Part shown: positions 4,345-45,719 of the stretch, piece by piece | Position numbering within the stretch: position 1 is the stretch's first letter | Layout of the letters: every line of letters starts with the position of its first letter | Assembly: GCA_022710345.1 (NCBI GenBank) | Contig: JAKLHB010000001.1 | Span: 1-49,064 of the forward strand | Reading direction: 5' to 3' | Source of the DNA: Planctomycetota bacterium | GTDB lineage: Bacteria > Planctomycetota > Uabimicrobiia > Uabimicrobiales > JABWCH01 | DNA: 49,064 nucleotides | Notes under the pieces: generated by a model | Databases searched by the model: none | What the model was told of the DNA's origin: nothing | What the model saw: only the letters and a program-made list of their open reading frames with translations | Position numbers and translations under genes: made by a program

Positions 4345-4530
4345 TTATTTGCTAAATTGTTTTTTGACTTGTGCCAAAGCTGCTTCAAATTTTGCTATCA
4401 ACTCTGCTGAATCTGGCATAGCTTCAGCTTGACTTGCGGCTAATGCAACAAGCTTTACAAATGCCACTTTGCCTTGGGCACCGCCAATTTCTTTGGCTTT
4501 TTCATAATATGTAGCTAATTTTTGACCCAT
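4345..4530 (-). CDS. Small hypothetical protein (61 aa from MGQKL)
   Basis: GGAG lies 6 nt upstream of the ATG at 4530. The track ORF extends to 4560, but that start has no RBS. No recognisable family. Confidence 0.5.
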   Translation of the reverse strand: MGQKLATYYEKAKEIGGAQGKVAFVKLVALAASQAEAMPDSAELIAKFEAALAQVKKQFSK

Positions 4531-4553
4531 AAAAACTCCTTTGTAGAATAAAA

Positions 4554-5423
4554 TTAACATGTCAATAAAAATGAATCAAGTCGTGTAGCAATCTGATAAC
4601 CCGCCGCATTTTTGTGTCCGCCACCGCCATGTTGTTTAGCAATCTGGCTTACATCATAGTCTGGCTTATAAGATCGCAATGAATGGGTACGGGTTTCAAG
4701 ATTGATGACATCTATGTATTCCAATGTTTTCCAAGCTTCTGGAGCTGATGATATATCTCGAATATATTGGCATAGTTCAGAAGTATGGCGTGATGATAAA
4801 ACCACCAAACGATTTCCTTGCACAATAGCTTGTTCTACACATTGTTTGAAATAACTATATTTCTTGGATTGCAGCCCATTTAAATATAATTGATCTGTAT
4901 CGCGTATTAAGGGCTGTGATTCTTGGATCCTGGTCTTCATGACTCCAACAAATGTATCCATACCCAATAAGTAGAGCATATCATTGAATAATGATGACTC
5001 TGGAGATGTATGAAGCCATAAATCGTAATCATTTACATGAAATATAAGTTTACTTAAATTTTCAAAGATTGGAACCTCTGGCATCTGTTCCTTCAGGGAT
5101 TCAAACAATACGCTTGCGCCACAACGGTCAAGCTTAAATTTGGCCCATGTATAGTTTCTCAAATACTCCCATGCAGTTTGATGGTGATCAAATAATTCAA
5201 TGCGGTTTGCATAAGCCTGATTCACTAAGGCCGCTGTTTCAGCATTCATCGAGATATCAGCAAGTACAATAAATTCGTTTGTTTTTTTCAACAATCCTAA
5301 CAGGGTAGAATCTACTTGATCATAATCACAATGATAAATTTTTGTGAGTTTTTGAGCATAAAAATGTTGCGCAACAATTGCGCAGCCAGCACCATCTAAA
5401 TCAATGTGAGTTAACAAAATCAT
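4554..5423 (-). CDS. DHH-family phosphoesterase (NrnA-like)
   Basis: HIDLDGAGCA, VLADIS, FDHHQT (DHH) and GGGGHKNAAG (DHHA1 GGGH) motifs. 4-nt overlap with the upstream kinase stop. Confidence 0.8.
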   Translation of the reverse strand: MILLTHIDLDGAGCAIVAQHFYAQKLTKIYHCDYDQVDSTLLGLLKKTNEFIVLADISMNAETAALVNQAYANRIELFDHHQTAWEYLRNYTWAKFKLDRCGASVLFESLKEQMPEVPIFENLSKLIFHVNDYDLWLHTSPESSLFNDMLYLLGMDTFVGVMKTRIQESQPLIRDTDQLYLNGLQSKKYSYFKQCVEQAIVQGNRLVVLSSRHTSELCQYIRDISSAPEAWKTLEYIDVINLETRTHSLRSYKPDYDVSQIAKQHGGGGHKNAAGYQIATRLDSFLLTC

Positions 5424-11539: not shown

Positions 11540-12598
11540 TTAATGTGAGTCTGGCTGCACTAATTCAAAATAACGAGTGATGGCTTTTCGATGTTGCAAG
11601 GAGACCTGCCACTTTTGTAAATACTGTTCAGCTTTTCGTTGGAAATCACGATATTGGAGTGGTGTTTGGCTGGTTGTGGTGTTTTCCTCTTGGCCAGCAG
11701 GGAGTTGAATTGTTTGCGACTCCATCCATGAAGCTCCTTGCCCAAACAATGGTTGAATTGATTGAGGCTGAAACCTAGGATTTTGCAAAGGGTTACATCT
11801 GGGATTTTGTTGTCTTTCCTGAGATTTCCTTGGTAATGACTGATCAGAATGATCTACTTGATCTGCTAAAGCCGGGGGTGGCTTTTTTGTCTCGACTTGA
11901 GCTGGAGTATCTACCGGAGTTGGCTTTTTTGTCTCGACTTGAGCCGGAGTTGGCTTTTTTGTCTCGACTTGAGCTGGAGTATCTACCGGAGTTGGCTTTT
12001 TTGTCTCGACTTGAATTGAAGTATCTGCCGGAGTTGGCTTTTCTGTCTTCTCGACTTGAGGCAGGTTGGCTACTGAACTCGGGTTTGCTTGCCCTAAATT
12101 TAGTGGTATTAAATGCCAACTCAGCCAAAGAATCAACCAAAAAACTAAAATCCACGATTCTTTTTGCCAAATAAATATTTTTTTCTTTGATCGAAATTGT
12201 TTTAAATATTGGGCAGCTTCTTGTAAAACCAAGTCTGTTGCCAAAGAACGTGGATGGTTGATAAAAAAGAATGCTGTGGTAATTAAATCAGGAAGTTGGG
12301 CTTCTTGATCCAAAGACTGAGCAACTTGCAATAGAGATGGGGCACACGACAATGCTTGGAGCAGAGCATACACGAGTGCTGCACATAGACCTCCGAACAT
12401 CCACCAATCTGGCAGTAAAAAATTAGGCTTGATTAATAACCAATCTAACCCGATGAGAGCATAAAGAATGACTAAAAAAACACTAGATGGCCAGCTAAAC
12501 CGAATCAAGAATGCCCAATAAATTTGGAAAAAATCTCGTAGGAGTGCTTGCCACCTTTGCTCAGAGAGTTTTTTCAAGACAATTTCGTACTCTACCAT
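11540..12598 (-). CDS. Hypothetical membrane protein with Pro/Thr/Lys-rich tandem repeats
   Basis: Several hydrophobic helices in the N-terminal half, then KKPTP(VDTP)AQVET repeats. The start could be 12598 (MVEYE) or 12631; both overlap the maf stop. Confidence 0.6.
   Translation of the reverse strand: MVEYEIVLKKLSEQRWQALLRDFFQIYWAFLIRFSWPSSVFLVILYALIGLDWLLIKPNFLLPDWWMFGGLCAALVYALLQALSCAPSLLQVAQSLDQEAQLPDLITTAFFFINHPRSLATDLVLQEAAQYLKQFRSKKKIFIWQKESWILVFWLILWLSWHLIPLNLGQANPSSVANLPQVEKTEKPTPADTSIQVETKKPTPVDTPAQVETKKPTPAQVETKKPTPVDTPAQVETKKPPPALADQVDHSDQSLPRKSQERQQNPRCNPLQNPRFQPQSIQPLFGQGASWMESQTIQLPAGQEENTTTSQTPLQYRDFQRKAEQYLQKWQVSLQHRKAITRYFELVQPDSH
11879..12060. repeat. In-frame tandem DNA repeat (42-bp and 30-bp units) inside the membrane-protein gene
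   Basis: ggagttggcttttttgtctcgacttgag(ctggagtatctacc) is repeated about 4.5 times. It encodes KKPTPVDTPAQVET / KKPTPAQVET. Confidence 0.85.
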
Positions 12599-13227
12599 GT
12601 TTGCATTCTCAATGAGGTGACTCGCTCCCATTCTTGGATAAATTGGCGCACTAAGTCCACAGGAAGCCCAACAACATTATCCCAAGGGCCATCCAAACGT
12701 TGCACAAACCGATCTGCTGTTTCTTGGATTGCGTATGCTCCTGCTTTGCCCATGGCTTCTCCTGAGTTAATGTAGTCATGAATTTCAAGATCGCTCATAG
12801 GTCTCATTGTTACATAAGTTTCTGCATATCCAATTAACCCTTGATTCCAGGCCAATGGCCATAGACATACGCCGGTCAAAACACGATGTTTTTGCCGAGA
12901 TAAACGCCAAAGCATGTCGTATGCATGCGAAGCATTTTCTGGTTTCCCCAGGATTTCGTTATGCAAAGCCACAATGGTATCTGCGGATAGAATCAAAATT
13001 TTTTCCCTCTGCTGTGGCGAATATTGAAAAAAAACTTGCTTGAACACTTGCTCAGCTTTTTGCCTAGCCAATTCTTGCACTGCCACAGATGGAATCCAAG
13101 ATGGATTAATTTTTTCTTCGATTTGCGGAGCTATGCTTTGAAATTGGAACCCTGCTTCTCGAAGAAGTTGGCTACGTCTAGGGGATTGAGATGCTAATAT
13201 TAACTCAAAATCCATTGTCTGCTCCAC
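12592..13227 (-). CDS. maf: Maf-like nucleoside triphosphate pyrophosphatase
   Basis: LILASQSPRRSQLL, ILSADTIV, GKAGAYAIQ motifs. Confidence 0.9.
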   Translation of the reverse strand: MEQTMDFELILASQSPRRSQLLREAGFQFQSIAPQIEEKINPSWIPSVAVQELARQKAEQVFKQVFFQYSPQQREKILILSADTIVALHNEILGKPENASHAYDMLWRLSRQKHRVLTGVCLWPLAWNQGLIGYAETYVTMRPMSDLEIHDYINSGEAMGKAGAYAIQETADRFVQRLDGPWDNVVGLPVDLVRQFIQEWERVTSLRMQTW

Positions 13228-16363: not shown

Positions 16364-16590
16364 AACTTTCTGCCAGTGCTGTGACTCTTTCAGAGTGCCG
16401 CACTGCCTCCTAAACATCGAAGAAGTACTTCTTCAAAAGACATTGAAAAATAAGAAAACATCTTGTAATCATACTGCCATTTGGTATGTCTTAACTAGAC
16501 AAAAATACGAAAATTGTATTAGAATGTTTGAGATGAGGAATTATTGTACAAACCCAAGAAGAACTCTCGTATAAGATTGCACTGCAGCAA

Positions 16591-16831
16591 AGTTTTTTGC
16601 CGCGAAGCGGCTTGGGGATAAAGCCTGGGGTTTCTAACCCCAGGTTATGTCGAGTCTTATCGTGTCCTGATGGGACACAGGAAACCGTAGCATTCTATCA
16701 AAGAGAACTTTTATTTCCGAGCGAATTTTTATTTGATTGATACCAGAGGTTTCTGTAGTAACACGGAAAGCAAGTTTTACAATCCTTACAATAAAAATGC
16801 ATAATGCAAGTGCTTTATATGCTGAAACTTA
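16591..16831 (+). repeat. Structured repeat unit A (5'-diverged copy, long-tail subtype)
   Basis: Near-identical to 16999-17238. Hairpins gccgc-gaa-gcggc (16599-16611), cctgggg-tttctaa-ccccagg (16624-16644) and gtgtcc-tgatg-ggacac (16662-16678). Confidence 0.9.
16777..16805 (+). promoter_or_regulatory. sigma70-like promoter in the tail of repeat unit A (TTACAA-17-CATAAT)
   Basis: ttacaa at 16777-16782, 17-nt spacer, cataat at 16800-16805. The same arrangement recurs in unit B at 17184-17212. Confidence 0.35.
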
Positions 16832-16931
16832 CTGCGCTTCCCGATTGAATTCAATATAAAAATTAATATACTGTACCCAGGGTTGGTTTGCTCATTCTGG
16901 ATATTGTATTGAATCTGTTTGAGAAGCGCGG
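16832..16931. mobile_element. 100-bp MITE-like insertion with terminal inverted repeats and a TA duplication
   Basis: It interrupts the A|B junction, which is contiguous at the B|C junction (gaaactta|atatctc). Ends are ctgcgcttc ... gaagcgcgg (8/9 complementary), and ta flanks both sides (16830-16831 and 16932-16933). Confidence 0.6.
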
Positions 16932-16933
16932 TA

Positions 16934-17238
16934 ATATCTCTACTCGATGCCGTTGCATGGCCAGGACAAAAAAATTGTCATTTTGCCTTTTCTTTTGTGT
17001 TTTTTGCCGCGAAGCGGTTTGGGAATAAAGCCTGGGGTTTCTAACCCCAGGTTATGTCGACTCTTATCGTGTCCTGATGCGACACAGGAAACCGTAGCAT
17101 TCTATCAAAGAGAACTTTTATTTCCGAGCGAATTTTTATTTGATTGATACCAGAGGTTTCTGTAGTAACACAGAAAGCAAGTTTTACAATCCTTACAATA
17201 AAAATGCATAATGCAAGTGCTTTATATGCTGAAACTTA
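16934..17238 (+). repeat. Structured repeat unit B (full 305-bp unit, long-tail subtype)
   Basis: Starts atatctctactcgatgcc and ends gctgaaactta. Has the same three hairpins as unit A (17006-17017, 17031-17051, 17069-17085). Confidence 0.9.
17184..17212 (+). promoter_or_regulatory. sigma70-like promoter in the tail of repeat unit B (TTACAA-17-CATAAT), pointing into unit C and the island
   Basis: ttacaa at 17184-17189, 17-nt spacer, cataat at 17207-17212. Confidence 0.35.
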
Positions 17239-17447
17239 ATATCTCTACTCGATACCGTTGCATGGCCAAGACAAAAAAATTTGCCATTTTGCCTTTTCTT
17301 TTGTGTTTTTTGCCGCGAAGCGGTTTGGGAATAAAGCCTGGGGTTTCTAACCCCAGGTGTAGATGTGTCTTGCAGTGCCCTGAAGGGGCACCGGAAACTT
17401 CCTATAGCTCGAATCCTCATGTCTGCAGCGACAGAGAATCGCCCTAC
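17239..17447 (+). repeat. Structured repeat unit C (short-tail subtype), the left inverted repeat of the island
   Basis: 17245-17447 aligns to the reverse complement of 26615-26828. The first half is shared with A/B. The second half is a diverged version of the same hairpin architecture (gtgccc-tgaag-gggcac at 17375-17391). Confidence 0.9.
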
Positions 17448-17560
17448 AATATCTGGATACAGATTAAGGATTTTTTTAGTATATTCTAGCACAACAAGTT
17501 AGAATTTCCGAAAATCCACATAAGTGCAAGACTATTTTTTAATAGCAACCATGGAAAGCA

Positions 17561-20500
17561 TTATGAGAGCATGATTTTTTCGGAAACTTTTTTCAGAATT
17601 GTATTGATTTTCTCCAGTTGCTTGGGATTCGGAATGTTTCCAGCAAGCTCGATGCGTAGATGGAATTGGAGGCCACATCCGGCTGTTTCTTGGAGAAGCT
17701 CGCCCATCACTTCGGCGAGATTTTGTAATTCTTCAGGCTTGATAGCTACTTCTGCAATAGGAACGCCAGATTTTTTTGGCTTACCAGGTTGAAGTGGTAC
17801 TAACGAGTCTTCTTTTATAGGGATACGGAGTTTTATTTTGTTGGCTTCTGCCAGAGTGGTTCCAAACGTATGCATACCTGAATCGAGGGTGCATTCCAGA
17901 AGATGAGATTGGATCGCACCCTGGATGGCTTCTCGTACCGTAGGCCAGGGCAAAATTTTTCCACCCTTCTGGGATAAAGCGGAAAAGATGGCTACTGCCG
18001 TTGTTTCTTGTGCCTGCCATGCGCCAGGAAGCTTTTCTGGCATAATGTCATCCATTGGAATGGCCGGCGGTGGCGGTTGTAATCTTGCCGATTCCCAGAG
18101 AAGCCCATTGGGAATCTCTTCGCCCAGTATACTGGCTTCCTGGCAGGTAAGCCAAAGTTTCCCTTCTGCGACCGCTTTTTTCACTGCATTCTGAACTACA
18201 GCTTTGTCCGCTTGGGGAATGGTGACAGATTCTTCATAGCCTTGCTTGGGAACCTGGATAGTGACTCCGGAGAAGTATTGGCATAGATTTTCCAGAGCAA
18301 TCTCAGGATTTTGCCAGAGGCTAGGCAGTTTTCCTGGTGATAAAAAAGACGTGGGTATATCACTTAAGGTGGCGTGTTCGGGTAATACCACTTCCAACGC
18401 TGGATCTTGGAAAGAACTTTCGTCCGGTTCCTCATGCCAAAAGGTCTTTTTCGTGTGATCCGGACGGTTCAATTGAAGTACAAAGAAACCTTCCCTTGCC
18501 CCTTGTACAAGCGTATCCAAAATTTTTTTCGACCGCAACATCTTGGGAAGGTGAGGAAACTGGGCAAACGCATTTACCAGGTCTTTGACACGACGCGAGT
18601 GTTCTCCTTCACGCCAAAGGTCGTAAGGGCCTCCTGGTAGAAGAGCATCTGCGCTGATCTCACTATCCTGAATGCGCACCTCTTTGGTCTGTTTAATCAA
18701 GGAGAATAGCGGCTGATCTTGGATTACGAGCTTGATAGCCTGGATTTCATTCTTCTCGCCTACTGCGACCACAATCGAATAAGCCTGCCGAATCATGTCA
18801 GTAATTTTCTTGCGGGCCGATTCGAGATTGCTGTTGAGGAGCTCTTGCCGGATCGGGTCTAGCTCCTCTTTTTTAAACTGCAACCGCACTTCCTCCCAGC
18901 CCAGATATTCTCGAATGGTATTACGGCAGATATCCAGGCCGTCTTTGGAAGGAACCGCCAATACAATGCTGTTGCGAAAGACCCTGGGCCGATCCGAGGA
19001 GGTAGTTTCTTCGAGAAACCGTCTGGCCTCTGGGTTAGGCTTTCCTGGATCCGAGGCGGCACTCGGGCCAAGAATGGCAAAATGAAAATCGCCGTCATCT
19101 TCTATATCCTTCGGCTTCATCGGCAAGGTATGAACTTTTACTCCCAGTCCTATGGCCCCTTCTTTTAAGCTTTTGATTTTGGGGATTTCGACGATCAACC
19201 TGGATTCGATGACCTCCGGCACTATCCTTAGACAGGCATCGTGGTGCATCTGCTTGAGATTGGGCCTGGAACCTAGCCGCCATGATTTAGGAAGCTTAAG
19301 GCTTTCACCCGTTGCCAGCGCAGCCATGCTTTCGTCCAGGAACCAGGAAATCTGCGCCCAACGGATCAATCCTTTTTCTAGCTCAATCTTATCTGGATGA
19401 GTTGCACCCAAAAGTAGCAACAAATCCCGAGTGAGCGCTTTTTGGCTAATTGGCTGGGAATGCAAAAAGGTAGCTACTACCGCTTGTTCGATCTCCCGGT
19501 GAGACAAAGCGACCTCTTTCTGGATTTCTCTGGCTTTTGTCAGTTCCCCTTCTAAGATGCCTGCCCATGCCTGTTTTTTGCCTTCATACTCTTCCGTAGC
19601 CGCGACATTCGCCAATTCTTGTGCCGCTTCCGAAAGGTCTTTGAAGCCAGGCTTTCCTAAAAAGATGTTGGCACCAATCAGAGGAGAATCGTCCCATTTC
19701 TCCGCTTCCCGCAGAGCTAGAGCAAAGGTTCTGAGAACACCACGTGTGCGCTGGAAACCTTCCAGATTTGTCCATTTGGTATAAAAAATTTCGGTAAGGT
19801 CGGGATGGAAAGGATAGCTCAGGAAGAATCGTTCCTCCGCCTGTTTGCCTTCTTTGCGCGTCTGGTCGTCCAGTTCCCCAATGCCTTTTAAAGCTGCCAC
19901 CAGATGGCAGCGGAAATGGTCTTTGCACTGGATGCTTTCCGGGGTAAAAAAACGCCGACGCAGCACCTCGGCCACATCTTCCTTAACCACCGGCTGGATG
20001 CCTTCCTCACTTTCGCGGCGGAAGATGGAATAAATTTCTTGGGTTAGCTCTTTTCCCAATGTATCGCTTTTTCTTGGATCTGTTGCCAAGAGAGAGGCAA
20101 CCACAGCACAAGAGTCCACCTTGGTAGCCGCCTGGGTCAGGCACTGGAAAAAATTGAGCAACTTGCCACGCCAATTGGGATCCAAAGCCACCTTCTCTCG
20201 TGCATACATCAAAACCTCATCGCAAAGAATCAGAGTGCTGAGGTTTTCCTGCGCAGGCATGCTCAACAGGTCCAGAAGAAGATTTTCTGCCGGGGCACTT
20301 TCCCTTTCCTCCTCCTCTCCCCTGACATGAAGCAGTTTCAGGCCATTTTTACCTGCCAATTGAAATGCCAGAATACTCCACGGATTTTTGAGCCATTTCC
20401 GAGTTCCATCCATGCCCAATACTTCCATGCCTTTTTCCACATCCAGCTTATCAAAAGCCAGAACAGCGATTCGAGCTTGTGCTGGACTGATGCCAATATG

Positions 20501-20860
20501 CTGGCAGAACTCCTGCACGGCAGGCAGAGTGGGCAAATGCTTGGGATCATGGACAAGATGGTATAAGGTGATAAGCGCGTGCGTTTTGCCACCACCATAG
20601 GTAAGTTCCAGTTGATGCACTGCCTTGGCATTTTTCTTAGCCAATCGTAATACCACATCTTTGGCCAGTTCACGTAGATTATAGGTAGGATAGGTCAAAG
20701 AAAAAAACTCCGTAGGGTCTTCATATTGCGAACGCCGATTCTTCTTCATCGCCACATCGTATAAATCAGCAGCAAATAGGGAAAGCGAAAGCTCTCCCGA
20801 CCGGAGTTCCTCCCGAAGGTGGACTACTTCATGCCATGGTTTCCAGGAAAGTTTTGTCAT
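17561..20860 (-). CDS. DUF499-family ATPase (large P-loop protein of helicase-methylase-ATPase type defence cassettes)
   Basis: The N-terminus (KPWHEVVHLREEL...LFAADLYDV...FFSLTYPTYNLREL...LELTYGGGKTHALITLYHL) matches my memory of the DUF499 signature. 1099 aa. Confidence 0.8.
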   Translation of the reverse strand: MTKLSWKPWHEVVHLREELRSGELSLSLFAADLYDVAMKKNRRSQYEDPTEFFSLTYPTYNLRELAKDVVLRLAKKNAKAVHQLELTYGGGKTHALITLYHLVHDPKHLPTLPAVQEFCQHIGISPAQARIAVLAFDKLDVEKGMEVLGMDGTRKWLKNPWSILAFQLAGKNGLKLLHVRGEEEERESAPAENLLLDLLSMPAQENLSTLILCDEVLMYAREKVALDPNWRGKLLNFFQCLTQAATKVDSCAVVASLLATDPRKSDTLGKELTQEIYSIFRRESEEGIQPVVKEDVAEVLRRRFFTPESIQCKDHFRCHLVAALKGIGELDDQTRKEGKQAEERFFLSYPFHPDLTEIFYTKWTNLEGFQRTRGVLRTFALALREAEKWDDSPLIGANIFLGKPGFKDLSEAAQELANVAATEEYEGKKQAWAGILEGELTKAREIQKEVALSHREIEQAVVATFLHSQPISQKALTRDLLLLLGATHPDKIELEKGLIRWAQISWFLDESMAALATGESLKLPKSWRLGSRPNLKQMHHDACLRIVPEVIESRLIVEIPKIKSLKEGAIGLGVKVHTLPMKPKDIEDDGDFHFAILGPSAASDPGKPNPEARRFLEETTSSDRPRVFRNSIVLAVPSKDGLDICRNTIREYLGWEEVRLQFKKEELDPIRQELLNSNLESARKKITDMIRQAYSIVVAVGEKNEIQAIKLVIQDQPLFSLIKQTKEVRIQDSEISADALLPGGPYDLWREGEHSRRVKDLVNAFAQFPHLPKMLRSKKILDTLVQGAREGFFVLQLNRPDHTKKTFWHEEPDESSFQDPALEVVLPEHATLSDIPTSFLSPGKLPSLWQNPEIALENLCQYFSGVTIQVPKQGYEESVTIPQADKAVVQNAVKKAVAEGKLWLTCQEASILGEEIPNGLLWESARLQPPPPAIPMDDIMPEKLPGAWQAQETTAVAIFSALSQKGGKILPWPTVREAIQGAIQSHLLECTLDSGMHTFGTTLAEANKIKLRIPIKEDSLVPLQPGKPKKSGVPIAEVAIKPEELQNLAEVMGELLQETAGCGLQFHLRIELAGNIPNPKQLEKINTILKKVSEKIMLS

Positions 20861-21212
20861 ATATGGATTCTCCTATTATCTTTTCTACTTCCATCAATTC
20901 CTTTATAAGATAGGGCAAATCTTTTTCGATGATATTCCAAATAACATTCATATCAACATGAAAATGTCCATGGATTAAACGGTCTCTAGTTCCTATAATG
21001 CCTTTCCAAGGAATTCGAGTAAATTCTTTGGAAGTTTCTGGAGATATCTTTTTCGCCGCTTCGCCTATCATTTCCAGAAGTCTTAAAACAGCAAGAACCA
21101 GCACTTCTTCATTCTCAAATTCTTGTCTTGTTTTTCCATCAATAAATTTTATTACTTTTTGGCTTGCGTCTAACATATGGCGAATGCGAATTCTGTCTTC
21201 ATGATTGAACAT
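20829..21212 (-). CDS. hepT: HEPN-domain (DUF86) toxin of an MNT/HEPN pair
   Basis: R-x4-H motif in GTRDRLIHGH. About 127 aa. 14-nt overlap with the upstream MNT gene, and the 3' end overlaps the DUF499 start by 32 nt. Confidence 0.85.
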   Translation of the reverse strand: MFNHEDRIRIRHMLDASQKVIKFIDGKTRQEFENEEVLVLAVLRLLEMIGEAAKKISPETSKEFTRIPWKGIIGTRDRLIHGHFHVDMNVIWNIIEKDLPYLIKELMEVEKIIGESIYDKTFLETMA

Positions 21213-21498
21213 ATTCTACCTGGGCTTCTTTTATTACAGCATCACGAAAATATGGACTTAGAAAATCAACCGTATTCAAATCCACTTTTCTTCCGAGCAT
21301 AGAAGAAAGGCTATCTTGTAGCTCAAAAAAAGCAAAACCTGGAGTATGCCCAGATTCAAACTCTACCAATATGTCAATATCACTCTCTGGGCCAAAATCG
21401 TCCCTCAAAACCGAGCCAAATAAGGCAAACTTTTTAATATGATGGACTCTACAAAAATCACTGATTTCCTTTTTCGGAATAAGAATGTTTTTATTCAT
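21199..21498 (-). CDS. mntA: Minimal nucleotidyltransferase (MNT) antitoxin
   Basis: LFGSVLRDDFGPESDIDILVEF (GS-x9-D-x-D). AGGA RBS upstream of the ATG at 21498. The track start at 21534 has no RBS. Confidence 0.85.
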   Translation of the reverse strand: MNKNILIPKKEISDFCRVHHIKKFALFGSVLRDDFGPESDIDILVEFESGHTPGFAFFELQDSLSSMLGRKVDLNTVDFLSPYFRDAVIKEAQVEYVQS

Positions 21499-21561
21499 AA
21501 AACAGTTCCTGTAGTTTAGTATTTTCTGGATCATTAGGGAAGTTTTGTCATAGGGATGCTC

Positions 21562-21798
21562 CTAAAACCTTGTAATTTCTACATAATGGTGTTTTTGACG
21601 TGCCTCTTGCACCATATTTTCCAATCGGGCTGCTACGTCATCTGGAATCCATTCGTTTCCGCACATAGAGCATAAACTAGCAGGTACATCCCTGATTACC
21701 ACGAGACCCTCACCAAAGTCTGTTGTAAAAGTGGTTTTACCTTGTTTTTTTGTTCCACCACACAAGGGACATTGGTCAGGCAAAGTCGCAAGTTTCAT
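21562..21798 (-). CDS. YgiT-type (MqsA N-terminal-like) zinc-finger protein, 78 aa
   Basis: CPLCGG...(27 aa)...CSMCGNEW, a two-CxxC zinc ribbon. gggagaag RBS. No adjacent toxin-like partner. Confidence 0.7.
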   Translation of the reverse strand: MKLATLPDQCPLCGGTKKQGKTTFTTDFGEGLVVIRDVPASLCSMCGNEWIPDDVAARLENMVQEARQKHHYVEITRF

Positions 21799-21816
21799 AA
21801 CTTTCTTCTCCCATTG

Positions 21817-22570
21817 CTAATTTTCTGTCTTCTCAATCCAGGTATCTTGTTTATTCGTGTTCTCTCTCCCCTTTGCTACCAGATGGTTGCTGATGCTTTC
21901 GAGGAGGGATCTTTCTTTGGTGCCATTTTCGGAGAGTTCGATGAGTGCCTGGAGAAATCGGGGGAATATGGCGAGCCTACGCAGTCCTCGAGATTCGAGG
22001 TATTCGTCTACTTTGGCCACATCTCCTTCTTTCCAGAGGTGCATGATGCGATGGATCTGGTCAATCAAAGGAATGGGAAGGTTGTGAGCGGTGGAATAGC
22101 CCATGTTTTTTTGTTTGCGTTGGACCCAGGTTTTGAGCTTGAGTTGGGAGCCGGTGCCTTTGGAAATTGGTTCGTCTTCTTTCATTTCCTCTGCATCGTC
22201 TGCATCGTCTGCATCATCTTCGTCCTCTGTGGTGGAAGATTGCTTCCCCCCGGTGCGAGCCAGAATGTCGTACTGCTCTGTCAGGTCCCGATCCGACAAT
22301 CCACAAGACAGGGAATACAGGATGCACACACCGCTGGGAACCTCATCCATGCCAAAGTCGTGGCGGTGCAAAAGGTAGTATGAGTGCTGCTCGACAAGCG
22401 GCCAGCGGTCTGCGCGCCGGCCAAATATGCAAGGTGGAAATATGCCCATGCCGGACATTCTTCTCATGCACAGAATCCAAAGAAGCCTGCTTCAAGGGAA
22501 ACGCCACCTCGATCAGACGAGGCTGATCGTTGCTTGGTTTATCATTCATCGAAATTGATCCTTTCGGCAT
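21817..22570 (-). pseudogene. DUF1156-family DNA methylase remnant: N-terminal and C-terminal pieces only, in two frames
   Basis: ORF 22343-22570 encodes [45 protein letters not shown] (DUF1156 signature) and then stops. ORF 21817-22467, in another frame, carries a typical C-terminal helix region (LIDQIHRIMHLWKEGDV...FLQALIELS). No SAM-binding or catalytic motifs fit in the about 250 codons available. Confidence 0.7.
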
Positions 22571-22617
22571 CGTTACTTATTTGTTGTCATCACCATCCAT
22601 GGCGCACATTCACGTTC

Positions 22618-22794
22618 TCACAACAGAATCGCCCTTTGAATCGTATCTACCTCTTGCGTTTCAAAATATGCCTCTCCACACTGGGTACATACCCAGGCAG
22701 GAATTTGATTCCAAACGATATGATACCCCTTTCGATCCAAATAAAATGGAGCCGTGCTTTTTTCCATAATGCCTTTGCAATAAATGCATTCCAT
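22618..22794 (-). CDS. YgiT-type zinc-finger protein, 58 aa (not in the ORF track)
   Basis: AGGAGG lies 7 nt upstream of the ATG at 22794. MECIYCKGIMEKSTAPFYLDRKGYHIVWNQIPAWVCTQCGEAYFETQEVDTIQRAILL has CxxC...CxxCGE. TGA at 22618-22620. Confidence 0.65.
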   Translation of the reverse strand: MECIYCKGIMEKSTAPFYLDRKGYHIVWNQIPAWVCTQCGEAYFETQEVDTIQRAILL

Positions 22795-22852
22795 ACTATA
22801 TCCTCCTTCGAAAATCTGCTTACTTTTTCCAAAATTTGCACATCAACCAATT

Positions 22853-25800
22853 TTAGTCCCCTTCCTCCATCTGCCATATTTCCTCTGCTGCTATCACCAC
22901 GCCGCCTCGGGGCTGTCCCAATAGTCTTCCAAATGGATCTTGGATACGCAAGAGCCTTGGGTGGGGTGTAGCGCAATCAAAGACTACATATAGCCAATAA
23001 CGGGAGCGCAGGTTGCAGGCTTTCACCCATTCATTGGTGGAAAGCTCGATATTACCTATATTGGCACGGCCTTTGACCTCGATGGCGCGCTCTTCTCCGT
23101 CCGGACGCTTCGAAACGAGATCAAAACCGGGCCAATGGACAAGCCCGCAAGCCTTTGCTTTCTCTGGCGTGGAAACGTCGCTGACTTGCGCGCCTTTGGA
23201 TTGTTCATGCGCAATGGCGATTTGCATGGCTATTTTTTCCATGTTTTCGTCGTATCTTTGCCCATCGTTTTCGTTATATGCTTGCTGATCTTGCAAGCCT
23301 TGTGGAGGAACTACCAGGGCAAATGCTAGAAAGGTTACCTTCTGCGATACGATCAATTCTGGCTCTCGGGCCAATCGTCGCAGGCTGTTTTCCAATTGGT
23401 GTCCCAAAAGTTTCTGGCGTTCTTTAATTCGCAAGAGTTCTGCCTTGGCTTCTGGATATCCAGCTCGCTCTTTCTCCGTCAACCTGGCTCGAATCATTGC
23501 CAATTCCGCAGATTGGAAATCATAACCGCGTTTGATAAAATTCTGCCTTTCCTCCAAAGCGTCTAGAAGAACCTGTCGTCGCGCCTTAGCAATGGGGAAT
23601 GCGATCTGCTGCAGGATATAAGCCTTGACTCGATCTAAGGAATTTGTAGCCAGGCTGGCAAACGAAATCTCGGCTTCCGGAACCCGCTGTGTGCCTTGCA
23701 GCAGCAATAGAGCTTCGACCGGGCATTCTTCTAAAGTTCCATTCTTATTCTGCCGAATCCCTACCAGCCTGTATTCGAGCACTTCCTTACGAGCGAAGGA
23801 CGGGATCTCAGAATCCGCCTCCCGCTCCACAGTAAAGACTGCCAGATAAAAAAGGTACGCTTCTGGAGCATGGGGGTTGATGAACACGCCGCCTTGTAGT
23901 GCCTCTGGACGAAAGAACGAGCAGACAAAGCTACGAAACTTATCAAAGAAAGGATCCCCAGGACGCAAGAAAATCGCGGAGTTGGGATCAGAAGGCTTGC
24001 AAACAGTAAAATGCTCCTGCTGCGAAGGCAAATAAGCATCCAAAGCATAGAGAAGAAATTCCAGCTTAGGAGGAAACGAGGTAAAGCAAAAATGATCCAT
24101 GCTTCCCTTCATGCCGATTCCCAATAACTCAGCCGCCTTTTCCATGAACCAGTAAACATAGCCAGGCAAAAGATGGTAATATTCTTCTGGATCCATAGCC
24201 CCGCTGGCGGTATTTTTATGATTTTCCTCTGCGGTGAGATGATTGTCCTCTACATCGCAAATTTCCCGCAGCCTTTTTACCGAGACCAGTTCCTCTATTT
24301 TTTTCTCGATCTCTGTGGTTCCTTCCTCGGTAATGGTCTGTTCCATATATTCCTTAAGGGAGATTCCTTCCAACAGCCTGCCGATGCAATCGAATACCTT
24401 GTCCGATCCAAGTTCTTTGCGAATCGTTTCCAGCTTCTTTAAAAGAGTGGCCAGTACCCTGCCTTCCCGGGTGTTTTTGGCGACCAGATTGAGGATCACG
24501 ACCGGATCGTGTTTCTGTCCGTAGCGGTGGATTCGGCCCATCCTTTGCTCTAAGCGGGCTGGATTCCAAGGGATATCGTAGTTGATCATAAGCCAGCAAA
24601 ATTGGAGGTTGATTCCTTCTCCTGCCGCATCGGTTCCTATGAGATAGGTTGCGCCTCCTTCCGCTGCACTTTTCTGGAAAAACTTTACCTGCTCTTCCCG
24701 CTCTTCATACGGCATTCCACCATGAACCTGGGCAATTTTTTCCGTAAACCCAAGCCCTTCCATTCGTCGCACAAGGAAATGAAGCGTATCCCGATGCTCG
24801 GTAAAGATGATGATCTTTTCCTCGCGGTATTGCGGGTCTTGGAGAATCTCTTGCAGTTTGCTGAATTTCGATTCCTCCCCTTTCTGGTATACCCGTTCTG
24901 CCAAGTCTAGAACATTGGAAAGCTGCGATTTTTCTACCTCCAACTCAGCCAATGAAGTGGCTACTATGCCTTCGAGCAGATTGGTTTCGGCAATCTCATT
25001 TTCTTCCTGGCCCTCTTCTGCCTCTTCTTCCTCTGCGGTCTTTTGTTCCCAGACATCCGGATAATTATCGAGCTTACGTTGCAAAGCCATAAGCCCGGCG
25101 GAAGTAATTTTCCCTGAACGGATGGCTTCTATCCAATCTTCTAGCTTCTGAAGGCGGTTCTTTAAAGACTGCACAAGAGCGTAGGTGGAACTCGCCAGAC
25201 GACGCTGAAAAATCATCATGGCAAACCGCACCGCAGAGCGATTTAAAATACGTGCACGGTTGTAGAATGTCCTGAGATAGTCGCTGGTCTTGTCATAAAG
25301 CTCCTGTTCGCTGTCTTCGCCTGAGGTCAATTGATACGTCAATGTATCAGAGATGCGCATGGGATAAAGGGGAGTTCCATCCGCATTCACCATCTCCTCT
25401 TTCGTGCGTCTTAGAAAATGGTGATATCGAAAAGGTTTTCGTCCTTGAGTAGATCCAGGGCATAGATGACCCGAGTAATCACGAAATGATTCCCAGGTAG
25501 GAAAAATCTCGGGAACCAGGAGCTTCCAAAGCGCGTAATAGGGAAAATCTTTCCCCATGTGCGGAGTGGCTGTCAGCAGCAACAAATGCGTTGCATGCCA
25601 GGCAAGCCGCCATCTGGGATCACGGTCTGCAATGCCAGCAAGTGCTTCGGCAAGATGGTATCGTTCGGTCTTGCGCACTCGTAAATCTAGCTCACGATCT
25701 GCGGACAGTTTGTGCGCTTCGTCGAAAATTACCAAATCATAAGGAACCACCGTTTCCTCTTGCAAACGGCAGAACATAGTATCTCCAGCCAAAGTATCCA

Positions 25801-26512
25801 GACTGACAATGACAAAGTCGCTCTCTGGCCCGATAAAAGGATTAGCGGAACGAGCTTCGATGCCCCGGACAATATGAAATCTCAGACCAAATAAGGTTCT
25901 TAGCTCTCGTTCCCAGTTGCCAAGAAGCCCTGCTGGCGGGATAATCAAGACTCTTTTGATCGCTCTTCTGGCGATCATTTCCCGGATATATAAGCCGGAC
26001 ATGATGGTTTTGCCAGCACCGGCATCATCGGCCAGAAGGAAACGCAGGCAAGGCTCTGGTAGCAAATATTCATAGACGGCGACCCGTTGATGAGGCAAAG
26101 GGGCGATCAAAGAAGTCTCTGTGGCAAAAACCGGATTAAACAGATGCCCCAAACCAAGCCTTTCTCCTTCGGCCACCAGTCTTACCATTTCAGGATTCGC
26201 AGAAAAATCTGGGCTTACAGGCTCCGAAGGCTCTTCGGGCCTCTCTATTCCATAAACAGGGCTGGCCTCTTTGGCAATCGTAAGTTCCTGCGCACCATGT
26301 GAACTATACGCAGTCTCGGTATGCAAAATTCGCTGCCAGGCTACCATAGTAGGCTTGGCTTTGCCATTCTCCCAACGATTTATGGTGGCAAACGACACGC
26401 CCAAAATTTCTGCCAAATGGCTCTGCGTCAATCCATGCCTGGCTCGCAATCTTTTGATACGAATTGGATAATCAGACGGAACCTGGTATTTCAACGAACT
26501 ATCCTCGCTCAA
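22853..26512 (-). CDS. SNF2/RapA-like superfamily-2 helicase with N-terminal XRE-type HTH and C-terminal PD-(D/E)xK-like (DUF3883-like) domain
   Basis: HGLTQSHLAEILGVSFATINRWENG (HTH); LLADDAGAGKTI (motif I), FDEAHKL (II), LLLTATP (III), GTDAAGEGINLQ (V), WNPARLEQRMGRIHRYGQ (VI). C-terminus: DLVSKRPDGEERAIEVKG...YWLYVV. Only TTG starts are available (26512 or 26494). Confidence 0.9.
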   Translation of the reverse strand: MSEDSSLKYQVPSDYPIRIKRLRARHGLTQSHLAEILGVSFATINRWENGKAKPTMVAWQRILHTETAYSSHGAQELTIAKEASPVYGIERPEEPSEPVSPDFSANPEMVRLVAEGERLGLGHLFNPVFATETSLIAPLPHQRVAVYEYLLPEPCLRFLLADDAGAGKTIMSGLYIREMIARRAIKRVLIIPPAGLLGNWERELRTLFGLRFHIVRGIEARSANPFIGPESDFVIVSLDTLAGDTMFCRLQEETVVPYDLVIFDEAHKLSADRELDLRVRKTERYHLAEALAGIADRDPRWRLAWHATHLLLLTATPHMGKDFPYYALWKLLVPEIFPTWESFRDYSGHLCPGSTQGRKPFRYHHFLRRTKEEMVNADGTPLYPMRISDTLTYQLTSGEDSEQELYDKTSDYLRTFYNRARILNRSAVRFAMMIFQRRLASSTYALVQSLKNRLQKLEDWIEAIRSGKITSAGLMALQRKLDNYPDVWEQKTAEEEEAEEGQEENEIAETNLLEGIVATSLAELEVEKSQLSNVLDLAERVYQKGEESKFSKLQEILQDPQYREEKIIIFTEHRDTLHFLVRRMEGLGFTEKIAQVHGGMPYEEREEQVKFFQKSAAEGGATYLIGTDAAGEGINLQFCWLMINYDIPWNPARLEQRMGRIHRYGQKHDPVVILNLVAKNTREGRVLATLLKKLETIRKELGSDKVFDCIGRLLEGISLKEYMEQTITEEGTTEIEKKIEELVSVKRLREICDVEDNHLTAEENHKNTASGAMDPEEYYHLLPGYVYWFMEKAAELLGIGMKGSMDHFCFTSFPPKLEFLLYALDAYLPSQQEHFTVCKPSDPNSAIFLRPGDPFFDKFRSFVCSFFRPEALQGGVFINPHAPEAYLFYLAVFTVEREADSEIPSFARKEVLEYRLVGIRQNKNGTLEECPVEALLLLQGTQRVPEAEISFASLATNSLDRVKAYILQQIAFPIAKARRQVLLDALEERQNFIKRGYDFQSAELAMIRARLTEKERAGYPEAKAELLRIKERQKLLGHQLENSLRRLAREPELIVSQKVTFLAFALVVPPQGLQDQQAYNENDGQRYDENMEKIAMQIAIAHEQSKGAQVSDVSTPEKAKACGLVHWPGFDLVSKRPDGEERAIEVKGRANIGNIELSTNEWVKACNLRSRYWLYVVFDCATPHPRLLRIQDPFGRLLGQPRGGVVIAAEEIWQMEEGD

Positions 26513-26614
26513 AATAGTCTTCTGTTTGGGAATAGTAATACTGCCATTTCTTGCCGATTATGGACTAGATTGGGAAGCAAAAATTTCCTAGTTCATAGCA
26601 TTCCAAAAGGTTAT

Positions 26615-26828
26615 GTACGGCGATTCTCTGTCGCTACAGACATGAGGATTCGAGCTATAGGAAGTTTCCGGTGCCCCTTCAGGGCACTGCAAGACACATC
26701 TACACGTGGGGTTAGAAACCGGTTAGAAACCCCAGGCTTTATCCCCAAGCCGCTTCGCGGCAAAAAACACAAAAGAAAAGGCAAAATGGCAAATTTTTTT
26801 GTCTTGGCCATGCAACGGCATCGAGTAG
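26615..26828 (-). repeat. Structured repeat unit D, the right inverted repeat of the island and the 5' leader region of the helicase operon
   Basis: Its reverse complement matches 17245-17447, with roughly seven substitutions by hand count plus an 11-bp tandem duplication (ggttagaaacc x2, 26710-26731). Confidence 0.9.
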
Positions 26829-27469
26829 TTTGATAGGTATGTGTTCAAAACAAAGACTTTTGAGCACCTACCTAATAAGCCGAGTTTCGTATGTTTTTAT
26901 GCATTTCATAGTAAAACAGTTTTCGATAGAGTGTCAAGCAAAATTCAAAAAATCAAGTTTTTTCTATCGTGAGCTTTGGCAAGACCCTTCTTTCCCAGAA
27001 ATTGTGATAGGTTTTTGAACTTGGAGTGGACAAAATTTCTATGGAGCCTATTTAATATGGAGTGTTTTTTTTCGATCTGGCTCTTGGCCTGAAAAATCCA
27101 TCATCAGGTGTTCTGTTTGATAACGAGTTAGATCATAAATAGCGCGTAATACTTTTGCTGATTTTTCAACCTGGATCATATCCTTAATTTTTAGGAGATG
27201 ATCAGCTAATTACTTTTCTTTCTGTAAGTTAGCAATGTTTTTAAACATAAATTATGAAGAATTTTTTCCAGAAAGTAAAATGCAAGATGACTATTTAATC
27301 CTGGATGACACAGCAAGTGCAGGCTAAATGCAAAAGCAATGGAAAAATTACAATACGGATATAACCAACAATTCAAATTTTATAAAAATTTTCAGTAGCA
27401 AATACGCTATATAACTTTTTGTTCTAAGAAGAATTAGCATATTCATGCTATGAAATTTTGAAATAATCC

Positions 27470-27497
27470 TTGCAAAAATTTGAATAAACTTTATAAT
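27470..27497 (+). promoter_or_regulatory. sigma70-like promoter (TTGCAA-16-TATAAT) upstream of the PEP-CTERM gene
   Basis: ttgcaa at 27470-27475, tataat at 27492-27497. About 100 nt upstream of the ATG at 27596, which has an aaaggag RBS. Confidence 0.4.
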
Positions 27498-27595
27498 TGC
27501 ATCGTCAGAAAACTTCTGATTCTAACAGTTTTCGAGACAGATGTAGATTTCCTAACACATTATATCAAAGAATGTTACCTTAAAGGAGAAAACTA

Positions 27596-43127: not shown

Positions 43128-43424
43128 TGTCTCTCCTTTCTTGATTTATGGAACGTGAAAAGTGGATTTGGTTGTTTTAGAGAATATATACCATACATTA
43201 TGGCAAAATCAACAAAATTTTGACAGGAATCTTGATATGCTCAAAAGGATGCCTAAAAATATCTGAGCATAATATAACATTTATTTTTTTTAGTCTTTAT
43301 TCACCATATAGTTAGAATTTTACATAAAATTTTGTTGTAATTTATTGGGAGCCGGATTAGAATTTTAGCAAATTTTTTGAGCAAAAATTTGCTTAAAATG
43401 TTTAGAATATTGCAAAGGATTTTT

Positions 43425-44768
43425 ATGGAAAATATCCAAGGAAAAAATATATCCCCTGGAACAAATAGTGAACCTGTTGCAGTAGAAGAACATACTGATG
43501 GCATGCAACTTGCTTTAAGCAATTTGCTTCAACCCAATGCTTCTCCAGATGATATACCTCAACTGAAAGCTGCAAAAAAATTTGGAGTTTTATTTATTCT
43601 TCTGAAAGAATTGTCTAAATCAAACTTAACAAATTTTTGGGTAAAAATTGCAATTCTCCTATTATTTTCTCAAGAAACAAATAAAACAGCCTGGACATCC
43701 CAGGAATTAGACCAAGACTTACATTGGCTGCAAAAAGAAGCGCGAAGTAGAATTATATCCCAATTAGTCAAAACCAATTGGCTTATTTTTCAAGATAGCA
43801 CATACCAGATGTCTGCTTTAGGAAAAAGTCTTTTGACTATGTTAGTTGGTCTAATGGATCGAGAAAATACCCAAGATTCGTTAGATACAAGTATCTCTTC
43901 ACTTACCTTGGCCGAAATTTCCCAAAGTGACCCGACAAATACATTGCGCATGTTCTTAAACGAACTCACCAGAATTGATCAGGAAATTCAGAGCACATTG
44001 GAGAGTAAATCCGAGCATCATCTGAGAAAAGCCAGCAGCAGGATTCGTAACCAATTTAGCGTTGCGATTAAATCCAGAGAGCATCTCGAAAATCTCCCAA
44101 CGAATGATTTTAATACATATCGCTTGAAACAAGAAGTGCACGAAAGACTTTCGGCATTTCACGCGCGGCTCTCACAGATTCAACGAGCACAAAATGATAT
44201 GATTGCACGCAAAATCATTTTAGCCGATCAATCCTTGACTCAACACGATATTGCAGAATTTTTGGTCAATGCAGATATGAAAGATTTGGTGAGACTAGGG
44301 AAAAAGGCCATCAGTTATCCGGTGAATGTACTAGATTTTGTGCCGCAGCTTATGGTCTATGAAACAGAATGGTATCTTGAAAAAGAGCGGAGTAAAGATG
44401 AGAGACGCGGTTGGACTGAAATGGAATTGGCCAACGAAAGTCAAGATCGCCTTGTCACATATAGTCGCTTCCTCCAGTTCACAGGAGAGGTGAATCATGC
44501 GTTGAGCCGATCTTCAGAACTCATTATTGAACAATTTATTCCATACGAAAATTGGACAACTTCAGCGTTTCGATTTTGCATGCTTTCAGTTTTGGAAAGC
44601 GGAGAAGTACCTGCAAATTTGGTGGCAGACGAAGCTGTAGCGTGCCCTAAACTCAAAGTTGCAGAACCAGACGGAGTATCTACTGCAGTATTAAATGACG
44701 ATATCACAGGCGTAAAAGAAATCACACGCGGCATTGTGACTGCTGTCCATGTTGAGGGAAAAAAATAA
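43425..44768 (+). CDS. Kleisin-like subunit candidate (MksF/JetA-like) of an SMC-type complex
   Basis: Call rests on position (first of three coupled genes before an SMC-like ATPase), size of about 447 aa, and a winged-helix-like segment (TSQELDQDLHWLQKEARSRIISQLVKTNWLI). The start is uncertain (TTG 43377 / ATG 43398 / ATG 43425 with an aaagga RBS). Confidence 0.5.
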   Translation: MENIQGKNISPGTNSEPVAVEEHTDGMQLALSNLLQPNASPDDIPQLKAAKKFGVLFILLKELSKSNLTNFWVKIAILLLFSQETNKTAWTSQELDQDLHWLQKEARSRIISQLVKTNWLIFQDSTYQMSALGKSLLTMLVGLMDRENTQDSLDTSISSLTLAEISQSDPTNTLRMFLNELTRIDQEIQSTLESKSEHHLRKASSRIRNQFSVAIKSREHLENLPTNDFNTYRLKQEVHERLSAFHARLSQIQRAQNDMIARKIILADQSLTQHDIAEFLVNADMKDLVRLGKKAISYPVNVLDFVPQLMVYETEWYLEKERSKDERRGWTEMELANESQDRLVTYSRFLQFTGEVNHALSRSSELIIEQFIPYENWTTSAFRFCMLSVLESGEVPANLVADEAVACPKLKVAEPDGVSTAVLNDDITGVKEITRGIVTAVHVEGKK

Positions 44769-45550: not shown

Positions 45551-45675
45551 AGTGTCCGATACCGCTTTGCTACTGATTAGCCTTTTTGGGGAAACTCCCA
45601 AAATTCGCTATCTTGAACTTTTCCAATCTTTTGTACCTCTGCAAGCCGCGTTCTATCAAATCAATCAGCGATCTT

Positions 45676-45701
45676 GAGCGAAGCTCAGCTTCGCTCTTTT
45701 T
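45676..45701 (+). terminator. Terminator-like hairpin 19 nt upstream of the SMC-like gene start
   Basis: gagcgaagc-tca-gcttcgctc followed by ttttt. Confidence 0.45.
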
Positions 45702-45719
45702 ATTCAATAAGGGAAATCT

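Follow-up and report, generated by a model that had tools for sequence, protein, structure and literature searches.

Can a defence operon of the Hma type still act on incoming DNA once most of its methylase gene has been deleted? The question is raised by an operon at positions 17561–26512 (minus strand) of a 49,064-nucleotide (nt) stretch of DNA, hereafter the window, from an uncultured Planctomycetota bacterium (assembly GCA_022710345.1, contig JAKLHB010000001.1). The operon encodes the helicase-nuclease HmaA and the DUF499 ATPase HmaC, and two stubs are left of the gene for the DUF1156 methylase HmaB. We are highly confident that it is an Hma locus that has undergone two deletions and retains orphan antitoxin genes. 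The truncated methylase is the unusual feature of the locus.

Eight co-directional open reading frames (ORFs) make up the operon, separated by 18–58 nt (intergenic gaps of 58, 47, 18, and 27 nt) or overlapping (MNT and HepT genes by 14 nt, HepT gene and hmaC by 32 nt). Their order is hmaA, a YgiT gene, the N-terminal and the C-terminal stub of hmaB, a second YgiT gene, the MNT gene, the HepT gene, and hmaC. A preliminary description, made from the sequence alone, had reported seven minus-strand genes in this order; all seven are found where it placed them, but it missed the eighth, a 216-amino-acid (aa) ORF at 21817–22467. Its naming of a helicase/DUF1156 methylase/DUF499 ATPase triad of the Hma type holds, as the PADLOC HmaA, HmaB, and HmaC models are the best matches, and so does its reading of the small genes as YgiT fingers and an MNT/HEPN pair, on the basis of TIGR03831 and Pfam matches. 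Profile searches also identified the 1099-aa product as DUF499 (PF04465, 6.5e-18) and the 75-aa product as DUF1156 (PF06634, 3.2e-14), as it had expected. The features are as follows, L092 being the closest relative with an intact hmaB.

22853–26512, minus strand: hmaA, 1219 aa (1213 aa in the JGI call), with HTH_3, Snf2, Helicase_C, and NOV_C domains and a PADLOC HmaA match
22618–22794, minus strand: YgiT-type zinc-ribbon gene, MqsA-N-terminal-like, orphan, 58 aa (TIGR03831, 39.5 bits)
22380–22570, minus strand, in the ORF 22343–22570 (75 aa): N-terminal remnant of hmaB (PF06634, PADLOC HmaB)
22376–22384, minus strand: junction of the 2266-nt internal hmaB deletion (blastn against L092)
21817–22380, minus strand, in the ORF 21817–22467 (216 aa): C-terminal remnant of hmaB (homology to HmaB C-termini)
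21806–21810, minus strand: junction of the 310-nt deletion, loss of a DUF4258 toxin gene (comparison with L092)
21562–21798, minus strand: YgiT-type zinc-ribbon antitoxin gene, orphan, 78 aa (TIGR03831, 47.5 bits)
21199–21534, minus strand: MntA-like minimal nucleotidyltransferase (MNT), putative type VII toxin–antitoxin (TA) antitoxin, 111 aa (NTP_transf_2)
20829–21212, minus strand: HepT-like HEPN RNase, putative toxin gene, 127 aa (PF01934)
17561–20860, minus strand: hmaC, DUF499 AAA+/STAND-type ATPase, 1099 aa (PADLOC HmaC, PF04465)

The deletion in the methylase gene

The extent of the methylase loss was read from L092, a 9.7-kb Logan contig that encodes an intact 983-aa HmaB and was found via the 90%-identity cluster of the 78-aa YgiT protein. 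Identity between the window and L092 is 74% for HmaA, 86% for the N-terminus of HmaC, and 87% for the 78-aa YgiT protein. No nearer ancestor with an intact hmaB was found, the next-best HmaB C-terminus being 64% identical. The blastn alignments stop at L092 position 4637, restart at 6904, and abut at window position 22380, where short CTCAT/CTAT-like microhomology flanks the junction. The alignments led us to conclude that hmaB has lost one single internal segment of 2266 nt relative to L092. Because 2266 is not a multiple of three, the reading frame shifts, and the two stubs occupy different frames. The deletion removed residues ~53–806 (L092 numbering), that is, the whole catalytic core together with the nested target-recognition domain, and only residues ~1–52 and 807–983 are left. 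A DUF1156 N6-adenine methyltransferase with a nested target-recognition domain and a C-terminal helix-turn-helix (HTH) triad is therefore not encoded in complete form. The span from the N-terminal to the C-terminal HmaB match is 750 nt in the window versus 2936–3905 nt in 50 related loci.

In the 75-aa ORF, the first 64 residues are authentic DUF1156 sequence, and the remaining 11, up to the stop codon, are frameshifted. The ORF matches only positions 1–42 of the 73 of PF06634 and positions 9–55 of the 967 of the PADLOC HmaB profile (2.1e-15), aligns with L092 positions 4478–4637, and is 75–93% identical over residues 13–69 to HmaB N-termini in 74 loci. The 216-aa ORF gave no hidden Markov model match; its residues 29–216 share 43–60% identity with the C-terminal part of HmaB from 56 related loci and 66% with that of L092. 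It thus carries the last ~177–188 residues of the methylase and maps to residues 807–983 (of 983) of the L092 protein. NCBI calls it as a 177-aa protein (P0001) starting at the ATG at 22350, which overlaps the stop codon of the N-terminal stub as ATGgaTGA. The methylase had already been described as decayed; since the deletion is internal and the C-terminal ORF survives, the decay is clean rather than diffuse. We rejected the possibility that such fragments represent recurrent stand-alone HmaB C-terminal proteins, as the short matches found elsewhere were contig-end fragments or pieces of broken genes. In the JGI annotation the DUF1156 stub is skipped, and remnants are annotated as anonymous hypothetical proteins.

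The intact core proteins and their family

HmaA matches the PADLOC HmaA model over residues 103–1178 (4.5e-161) and the Pfam families HTH_3 (1.1e-10), SNF2-rel_dom (6.3e-11), Helicase_C (9.4e-24), and NOV_C (1.6e-17). Helicase motifs I, II, III, and VI and the PD-(D/E)xK residues D1131, E1145, K1147, and E1161 are all kept, each being at least 96% conserved across 81 relatives. These motifs mark the protein as a Snf2 helicase whose C-terminal domain is a PD-(D/E)xK (NOV_C) nuclease. Its N-terminal XRE-type HTH (residues 1–65; window 26320–26512) is present in 76 of the 81 relatives (including loci L002–L081). The HmaA of Halomonas meridiana by itself reduced T4 approximately 100-fold in E. coli, an effect that required helicase motif VI and the NOV_C PD-(D/E)xK residues; it nicks supercoiled DNA and is not toxic without HmaB (PMC11232893).

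HmaC matches the PADLOC HmaC model (1.5e-69) in addition to PF04465, and tblastn gave full-length matches (residues 1–1099) to relatives at 50–67% identity. The Walker A (GGGKT) and Walker B (DE) motifs of a DUF499 AAA+/STAND ATPase are both kept and are invariant among 24 relatives. The NCBIfam equivalog DUF499_antiphage was not reached (80 bits; cut-off 1200).

A scan of genome contigs provided 80 related loci from many phyla, with HmaA proteins 48–58% identical to that of the window. hmaB follows hmaA in 73 of the 80, and hmaC follows hmaB in 42. The order hmaA-hmaB-hmaC, which the preliminary description had proposed to compare, is constant wherever the downstream genes could be located, with or without cargo, and the window has the same co-directional order. 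Among published hmaA loci, 85.3% have hmaB and 14.7% lack it (PMC11232893). More than 300 nt separate hmaA from hmaB in 61 of 71 loci (86%) and hmaB from hmaC in 27 of 40 (68%). The ORFs in these gaps encode AAA_21/SMC-like ATPases, DUF2813, UvrD, AbiEii, SMODS, Schlafen/AlbA_2, Fic, and TIR proteins, as well as DUF4258 with MqsA-like proteins. Embedded genes, which had been called atypical in the preliminary description, are thus typical of the family, and the two intergenic slots of hma serve as general landing sites for cargo of the defence and TA kinds. This agrees with a report of inserted genes between the core genes in 66.5% of hma loci, in which the locus was called an insertion hotspot (PMC11232893). 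The family is also better characterised than that description allowed, with HmaA tested in 2024 (PMC11232893) and the family classified in 2026 (PMC12839542).

The latter work reassigned the triad to DUF499-centred BREX-related (BR) systems, which it divides into Types 1–3. In Type 1 the helicase ends in a PD-(D/E)xK nuclease; Type 2 is marked by an HKD nuclease at the N-terminus of the helicase together with a stand-alone DUF3780 gene, and Type 3 by PglZ and iSTAND (BrxB/BrxF-like) genes and a helicase to which no nuclease is fused. Auxiliary effectors of the HEPN and HEPN-MNT kinds are frequent in BR loci (PMC12839542). On this scheme, the window has the Type-1 architecture. No PLD/HKD or DUF3780 Pfam match of the kind that marks Type 2 was obtained on any operon ORF. 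Neither the operon nor the scanned window ORFs contained a PglZ gene, and the helicase carries NOV_C, unlike that of Type 3 BR or Type 3 BREX. The locus is a known Hma/Type-1 DUF499-centred BREX-related system, horizontally acquired and partly decayed, and an ordinary member of its family.

The Halomonas system shares with the window the Snf2 helicase with a C-terminal NOV_C PD-(D/E)xK domain (D / ExK / E kept), the DUF499 ATPase as HmaC, the gene order, and the presence of foreign genes between the core genes. The window differs in that its hmaB consists of two stubs, in the extra N-terminal XRE-type HTH of HmaA, and in its cargo, which comprises small TA-type genes instead of the Septu, PARIS, and AAA_21 systems of Halomonas. 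With Type-1 BR it has in common the tripartite organisation of ATPase, N6-methyltransferase, and helicase-restriction endonuclease, a canonical DUF499 ATPase without fused HEPN, and HEPN and MNT as in-locus auxiliary effectors; unlike Type 1, its methylase is predicted to be non-functional and its HepT is free-standing instead of fused, its gene overlapping the start of hmaC in another frame. Type 3 BREX (BrxC/PglXI/BrxHII) has a homologous helicase, methylase, and ATPase, and PADLOC BrxHII matches HmaA (2.6e-91), but the window has no PglZ, BrxA, or BrxF gene, its ATPase matches HmaC/DUF499 and not BrxC, and its helicase has its own PD-(D/E)xK nuclease. The Snf2 core is shared with DISARM DrmD (PADLOC DrmD 9e-103; NCBIfam 327 bits); the NCBIfam score is below the equivalog cut-off of 610, HmaA is by far the better match, and no DrmA, DrmB (DUF1998), DrmC, or DrmE partner was found.

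Cargo genes and surroundings

Between the C-terminal stub of hmaB and hmaC lie the 78-aa YgiT gene and the MNT/HepT pair. The MNT protein matches NTP_transf_2 (6.9e-13) and PADLOC PDC-S09 (1e-27), and a GS...DxD motif was read directly from its sequence. The HepT protein matches PF01934 (HepT-like, 9.9e-23), and its RDRLIHGH (within window 20970–21000) is an Rx4H motif that reads Rx4HxH. The motif of characterised HepT is Rx4HxY, with an AMPylated tyrosine. Both genes, each with a G+C content of 0.35, pass the Pfam thresholds and together present the adjacent MNT (GSx(n)DxD) and HEPN (Rx4–6H) arrangement. The pair resembles the type VII TA system MntA/HepT in the upstream position of MNT, the 14-nt overlap, and the GS..DxD and Rx4H motifs. 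It differs in that both proteins score below the NCBIfam equivalog cut-offs (47.9 bits for MntA and 27.6 bits for HepT; cut-off 60 in each case) and in that the 3' end of the HepT gene lies inside hmaC. No PDB relative of HepT was found at E ≤ 0.01, and tblastn detected no homologue of MNT, HepT, or the 58-aa YgiT protein in any of the 80 related loci. Homology to L092 restarts 13 nt ahead of the hmaC start codon, and the HepT ORF accordingly ends 32 nt within hmaC, in another frame. In this overlap (20829–20860), a 1-nt insertion or deletion would yield a HEPN-DUF499 fusion, as reported for many Type-1 BR systems. The idea that HepT is a detached N-terminal HEPN domain of the DUF499 protein was rejected on the grounds that it has no tblastn homologue in the 80 loci, that the HmaC proteins of relatives start at residues 1–8 without an extension, and that it is paired with an MNT of its own and differs in G+C content.

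The proteins of both YgiT genes pass the TIGR03831 cut-off of 20.2 bits, in line with the zinc-ribbon antitoxin of DUF4258/YgiT pairs, and lack an HTH domain. The homologues of the 58-aa protein are 63–77% identical and mostly 67–96 aa long; its C-terminus is ~10–18 aa shorter than that of the family, with all four cysteines retained. A relative of this gene directly follows a DUF4258 toxin gene in another locus (L162), and in the window there is no space upstream for such a gene. In the JGI annotation an overlapping 76-aa ORF in another frame (L001 7984–8214, window 22647–22877) was chosen over the 58-aa gene. The 78-aa protein is 87% identical to the product of an L092 gene that directly follows DUF4258, and it has weaker homologues in the hmaB-hmaC gap of two further loci (L043 and L046). 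The L092 segment 7446–7755, which encodes a 104-aa DUF4258 protein (2e-21), is exactly absent from the window, corresponding to a deletion of 310 nt. Its breakpoints fall in two Shine-Dalgarno-like GGAGAA repeats, and the junction was confirmed by five further contigs from other samples. With the DUF4258 gene excised, the 78-aa YgiT gene now directly follows hmaB. DUF4258 is a toxin family of the RelE/ParE superfamily, fused to or paired with MqsA-like antitoxins (PMC11980606). Unlike in such pairs, no DUF4258 toxin gene lies directly upstream of, or elsewhere beside, either YgiT gene of the window, and we conclude that both are orphan genes of predicted antitoxin type.

The HTH of HmaA weakly matches the HTH half of MqsA (TIGR03830), and the 58-aa protein matches the zinc-ribbon half. 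A functional split MqsA formed by the two was rejected, because the zinc-ribbon gene is downstream, the HTH occurs in 76 of the 81 relatives without such a zinc-ribbon gene, and the YgiT family normally partners DUF4258.

In L092, the hmaB-hmaC slot contains, in order, DUF4258, YgiT, a decayed second hmaB 3' end, UPF0175, and DUF3368, and the hmaA-hmaB slot contains an antitoxin-like gene and a split PIN gene. The decayed second copy (L092 8008–8192), located directly after the DUF4258-YgiT cassette, corresponds to the last ~60 codons of hmaB. It shares 79% identity with the locus's own hmaB 3' end and contains a stop codon and a 1-nt deletion. This suggests that the cassette entered within the 3' end of hmaB and brought a replacement end with it in L092. 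The synonymous divergence (dS) from L092 is 0.70 for the 78-aa YgiT gene and ~1.6 for the hma genes, a difference that suggests a younger age for the cargo than for the core.

The island is located between htrA and a PEP-CTERM gene, and its flanks are housekeeping genes, with Maf, Der, and HtrA on one side and the PEP-CTERM protein and peptidases on the other. The Der GTPase homologues with an organism assignment all belong to Planctomycetota (~48–54% identity). The G+C content is 0.49–0.51 in the hma genes, ~0.41 in the flanks, and 0.35–0.43 in the small inserted genes; these contrasts point to a foreign island whose cargo was acquired later. Promoter and terminator scans gave no excess over the shuffled expectation. 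Copies of a repeat flank the operon.

16561–17448, no strand assigned: left-hand repeat cluster, ending 112 nt downstream of hmaC
26614–26828, no strand assigned: right-hand repeat copy, in inverted orientation to the left-hand one, 101 nt upstream of hmaA

The left-hand cluster consists of two tandem units spaced by 407 nt (16561–17238) and one full copy (17245–17448), which is complementary to the right-hand copy at 97% in two blocks, or 92% when an 11-nt insertion or deletion is counted. A 20-mer of the repeat occurs in 69 metagenome contigs (L093–L161), mostly at contig ends. The core of ~100 nt folds into three hairpins and forms two subfamilies with one compensatory pair between them. 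Searches of the window and the repeats against Rfam and for tRNA genes gave no matches, the repeat family included. Elsewhere the repeat adjoins ordinary housekeeping genes, and the Pfam families that occur most often in repeat-neighbouring ORFs include no transposases and no defence genes. The repeat is a generic dispersed intergenic family of this genome, and a composite transposon bounded by the inverted copies was rejected for this reason.

Three further observations concern other parts of the window. Between the right-hand repeat and the PEP-CTERM gene, a 767-nt AT-rich stretch (26829–27595, G+C ~0.35) contains no ORF of at least 60 aa. Three co-directional genes at 43377–48506 (plus strand) encode products of 463, 260, and 928 aa. 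The 928-aa product is an SMC-like ATPase that matches the PADLOC JetC (1.8e-34) and LmuB models, neither of the others has a Pfam or PADLOC match, and the trio may be a Wadjet/MksBEF-like module. A 72–73-nt tandem duplication (11870–12014, 97% identical) lies within a 363-aa ORF (11540–12631) that has no Pfam or PADLOC match.

Possible activity of the locus after methylase loss

Both remaining core genes are full length, with ~7 kb of ORF free of stop codons and frameshifts and with all catalytic motifs kept. In Tajima relative-rate tests against L092, no acceleration was observed for HmaA (medians of 58 versus 55 lineage-specific changes, 80 outgroups) or for the N-terminus of HmaC (9 versus 7). 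The pairwise ratio of nonsynonymous to synonymous divergence (dN/dS) was 0.10 for hmaA and 0.05 for hmaC. The C-terminal stub of hmaB deviates alone at 9 well-conserved columns, and L092 does so at 3. The rate tests and dN/dS gave no sign of relaxed selection on hmaA and hmaC after the deletion and a weak hint of it for the stub. The saturation of dS at ~1.6 means that it gives no timing of the deletion, which is probably recent on the scale of these divergences.

We lean, with some reserve, towards a methylase-null Hma locus that has an HmaA-centred, modification-independent activity and an additional HepT/MNT module. HmaB would have marked self DNA, and with its loss the cell would no longer mark its DNA through HmaB. 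HmaA would translocate on DNA and nick it, acting as a helicase-nickase against incoming DNA irrespective of modification; this is proposed because the Halomonas HmaA acts alone without toxicity (PMC11232893). HmaC probably joins HmaA as a sensor or scaffold ATPase. MntA and HepT would constitute an independent RNase toxin restrained by MNT, an auxiliary effector of the sort commonly lodged in BR loci, and the two YgiT genes would be leftovers, at most buffering against related toxins. Residual activity of HmaA and HmaC, taken by itself, seems to us quite conceivable, if a shade on the doubtful side.

Several points weigh against this explanation. A restriction-modification (R-M)-like logic, in which the methylase protects self DNA, has been argued on comparative grounds only (PMC12839542). 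Under that logic a methylase-null locus should be toxic or switched off. PglX, the methylase of the related BREX systems, is needed for both methylation and defence. The window keeps fewer of the family-conserved columns than the median relative, both in HmaA (94.1% versus 98.9%) and in HmaC (92.9% versus 97.4%), a comparison confounded by the lack of a close sister of the window in that set. The C-terminal stub shows a weak, overall non-significant excess of changes (median 13 versus 8.5, significant with 27% of the outgroups), has a dN/dS of 0.12, and contains no stop codon. The deletion may be too recent for the intact state of hmaA and hmaC to be informative about selection, and that state is weak evidence that selection has continued. 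Decay of other hma loci is common: hmaA, hmaB, and hmaC are each in pieces in L082/L083, an rve-family insertion sequence element interrupts hmaA in L084, and codon 202 of the L092 hmaA is an in-frame TGA where the window has tryptophan. In addition, the hmaB junction at 22380 is covered by two assemblies only, possibly from the same reads.

The main alternative is that the locus is a dead relic, a possibility that we regard as real though short of probable, and as only slightly behind the favoured explanation. The loss of HmaB would then have inactivated the whole Hma module, for instance if the module, like BREX, works as a complex that includes the methylase; recency alone would explain the intact look of hmaA and hmaC, and only MntA/HepT may remain active. 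The visible decay of other hma loci, the reduced share of conserved columns, and an erosion that comprises two separate deletions and a shortened YgiT gene fit such a history, and the barely diverged C-terminal stub without a stop codon is consistent with a recent event. On the other side stand the ~7 kb of hmaA and hmaC in which every catalytic residue is kept, the absence of acceleration relative to a sister lineage that retains hmaB, and the activity of HmaA alone, without toxicity, in the one system tested (PMC11232893). The deletion-bearing strain also recurs at 99.9–100% identity in several metagenomes, with positions 20175–22093 at most covered there, by five short contigs from other samples.

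A working R-M-like system, with self DNA protected in trans by another DUF1156/N6-adenine methylase or with a role of the HmaB C-terminal fragment in the complex, appears very improbable. The open frame of the stub, an ATGgaTGA arrangement compatible with translational coupling, a dN/dS resembling that of hmaA, and the existence of one related genome with two hma loci (L074 and L080, same contig) would accord with it. However, the ORFs scanned in the 49-kb window included none with a methyltransferase domain, nothing of the catalytic core or the target-recognition domain is left in the stub, whose first helix-turn-helix-like segment also looks truncated in the alignment, and similar fragments elsewhere are pieces of broken genes. 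Still further from probable is an assembly artefact or a minority variant in a population whose real hmaB is intact. Junction 22380 is covered by the window and one JGI contig (L001) only, possibly from the same sample, but the two assemblies agree on the same operon with 2 mismatches over 23.3 kb, assemblers do not normally create deletions with 4–5-nt microhomology inside unique sequence, and the second junction (21806–21810) was confirmed in other samples. Finally, the 215-nt inverted repeats may carry or invert the Hma island as a unit, which would be compatible with the explanation we favour and which we consider quite improbable. Inverted copies do stand just outside both ends of the operon, and the island has a foreign G+C content; against this, the repeat is high-copy and dispersed beside ordinary housekeeping genes, the Pfam scan revealed no transposase or integrase in or adjoining the island, and no empty site or second insertion was found.

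Returning to the methylase-null Hma locus with modification-independent activity, we regard as rather unlikely the further claim that hmaA and hmaC have been under selection since the loss of the methylase and still give immunity, with sensing by HmaC rather than methylation gating the HmaA nickase. If this were true, the locus would be a natural methylase-null system and would indicate that Type-1 BR/Hma systems need no HmaB-dependent self-marking, either against autoimmunity or for restriction, a logic unlike that of BREX and unlike that of R-M. The locus presents nothing categorically new, the system having been named, tested once, and recently classified. At nucleotide resolution it records how cargo has turned over in the two hma slots, with a toxin gene precisely excised between two ribosome-binding-site repeats and its antitoxin gene left as an orphan, and it illustrates how annotation pipelines split such remnants into anonymous small ORFs. 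Above all, it offers a cleanly reconstructed natural methylase knock-out with nuclease-helicase and ATPase intact, which bears on the modification-dependence of BR/Hma immunity.

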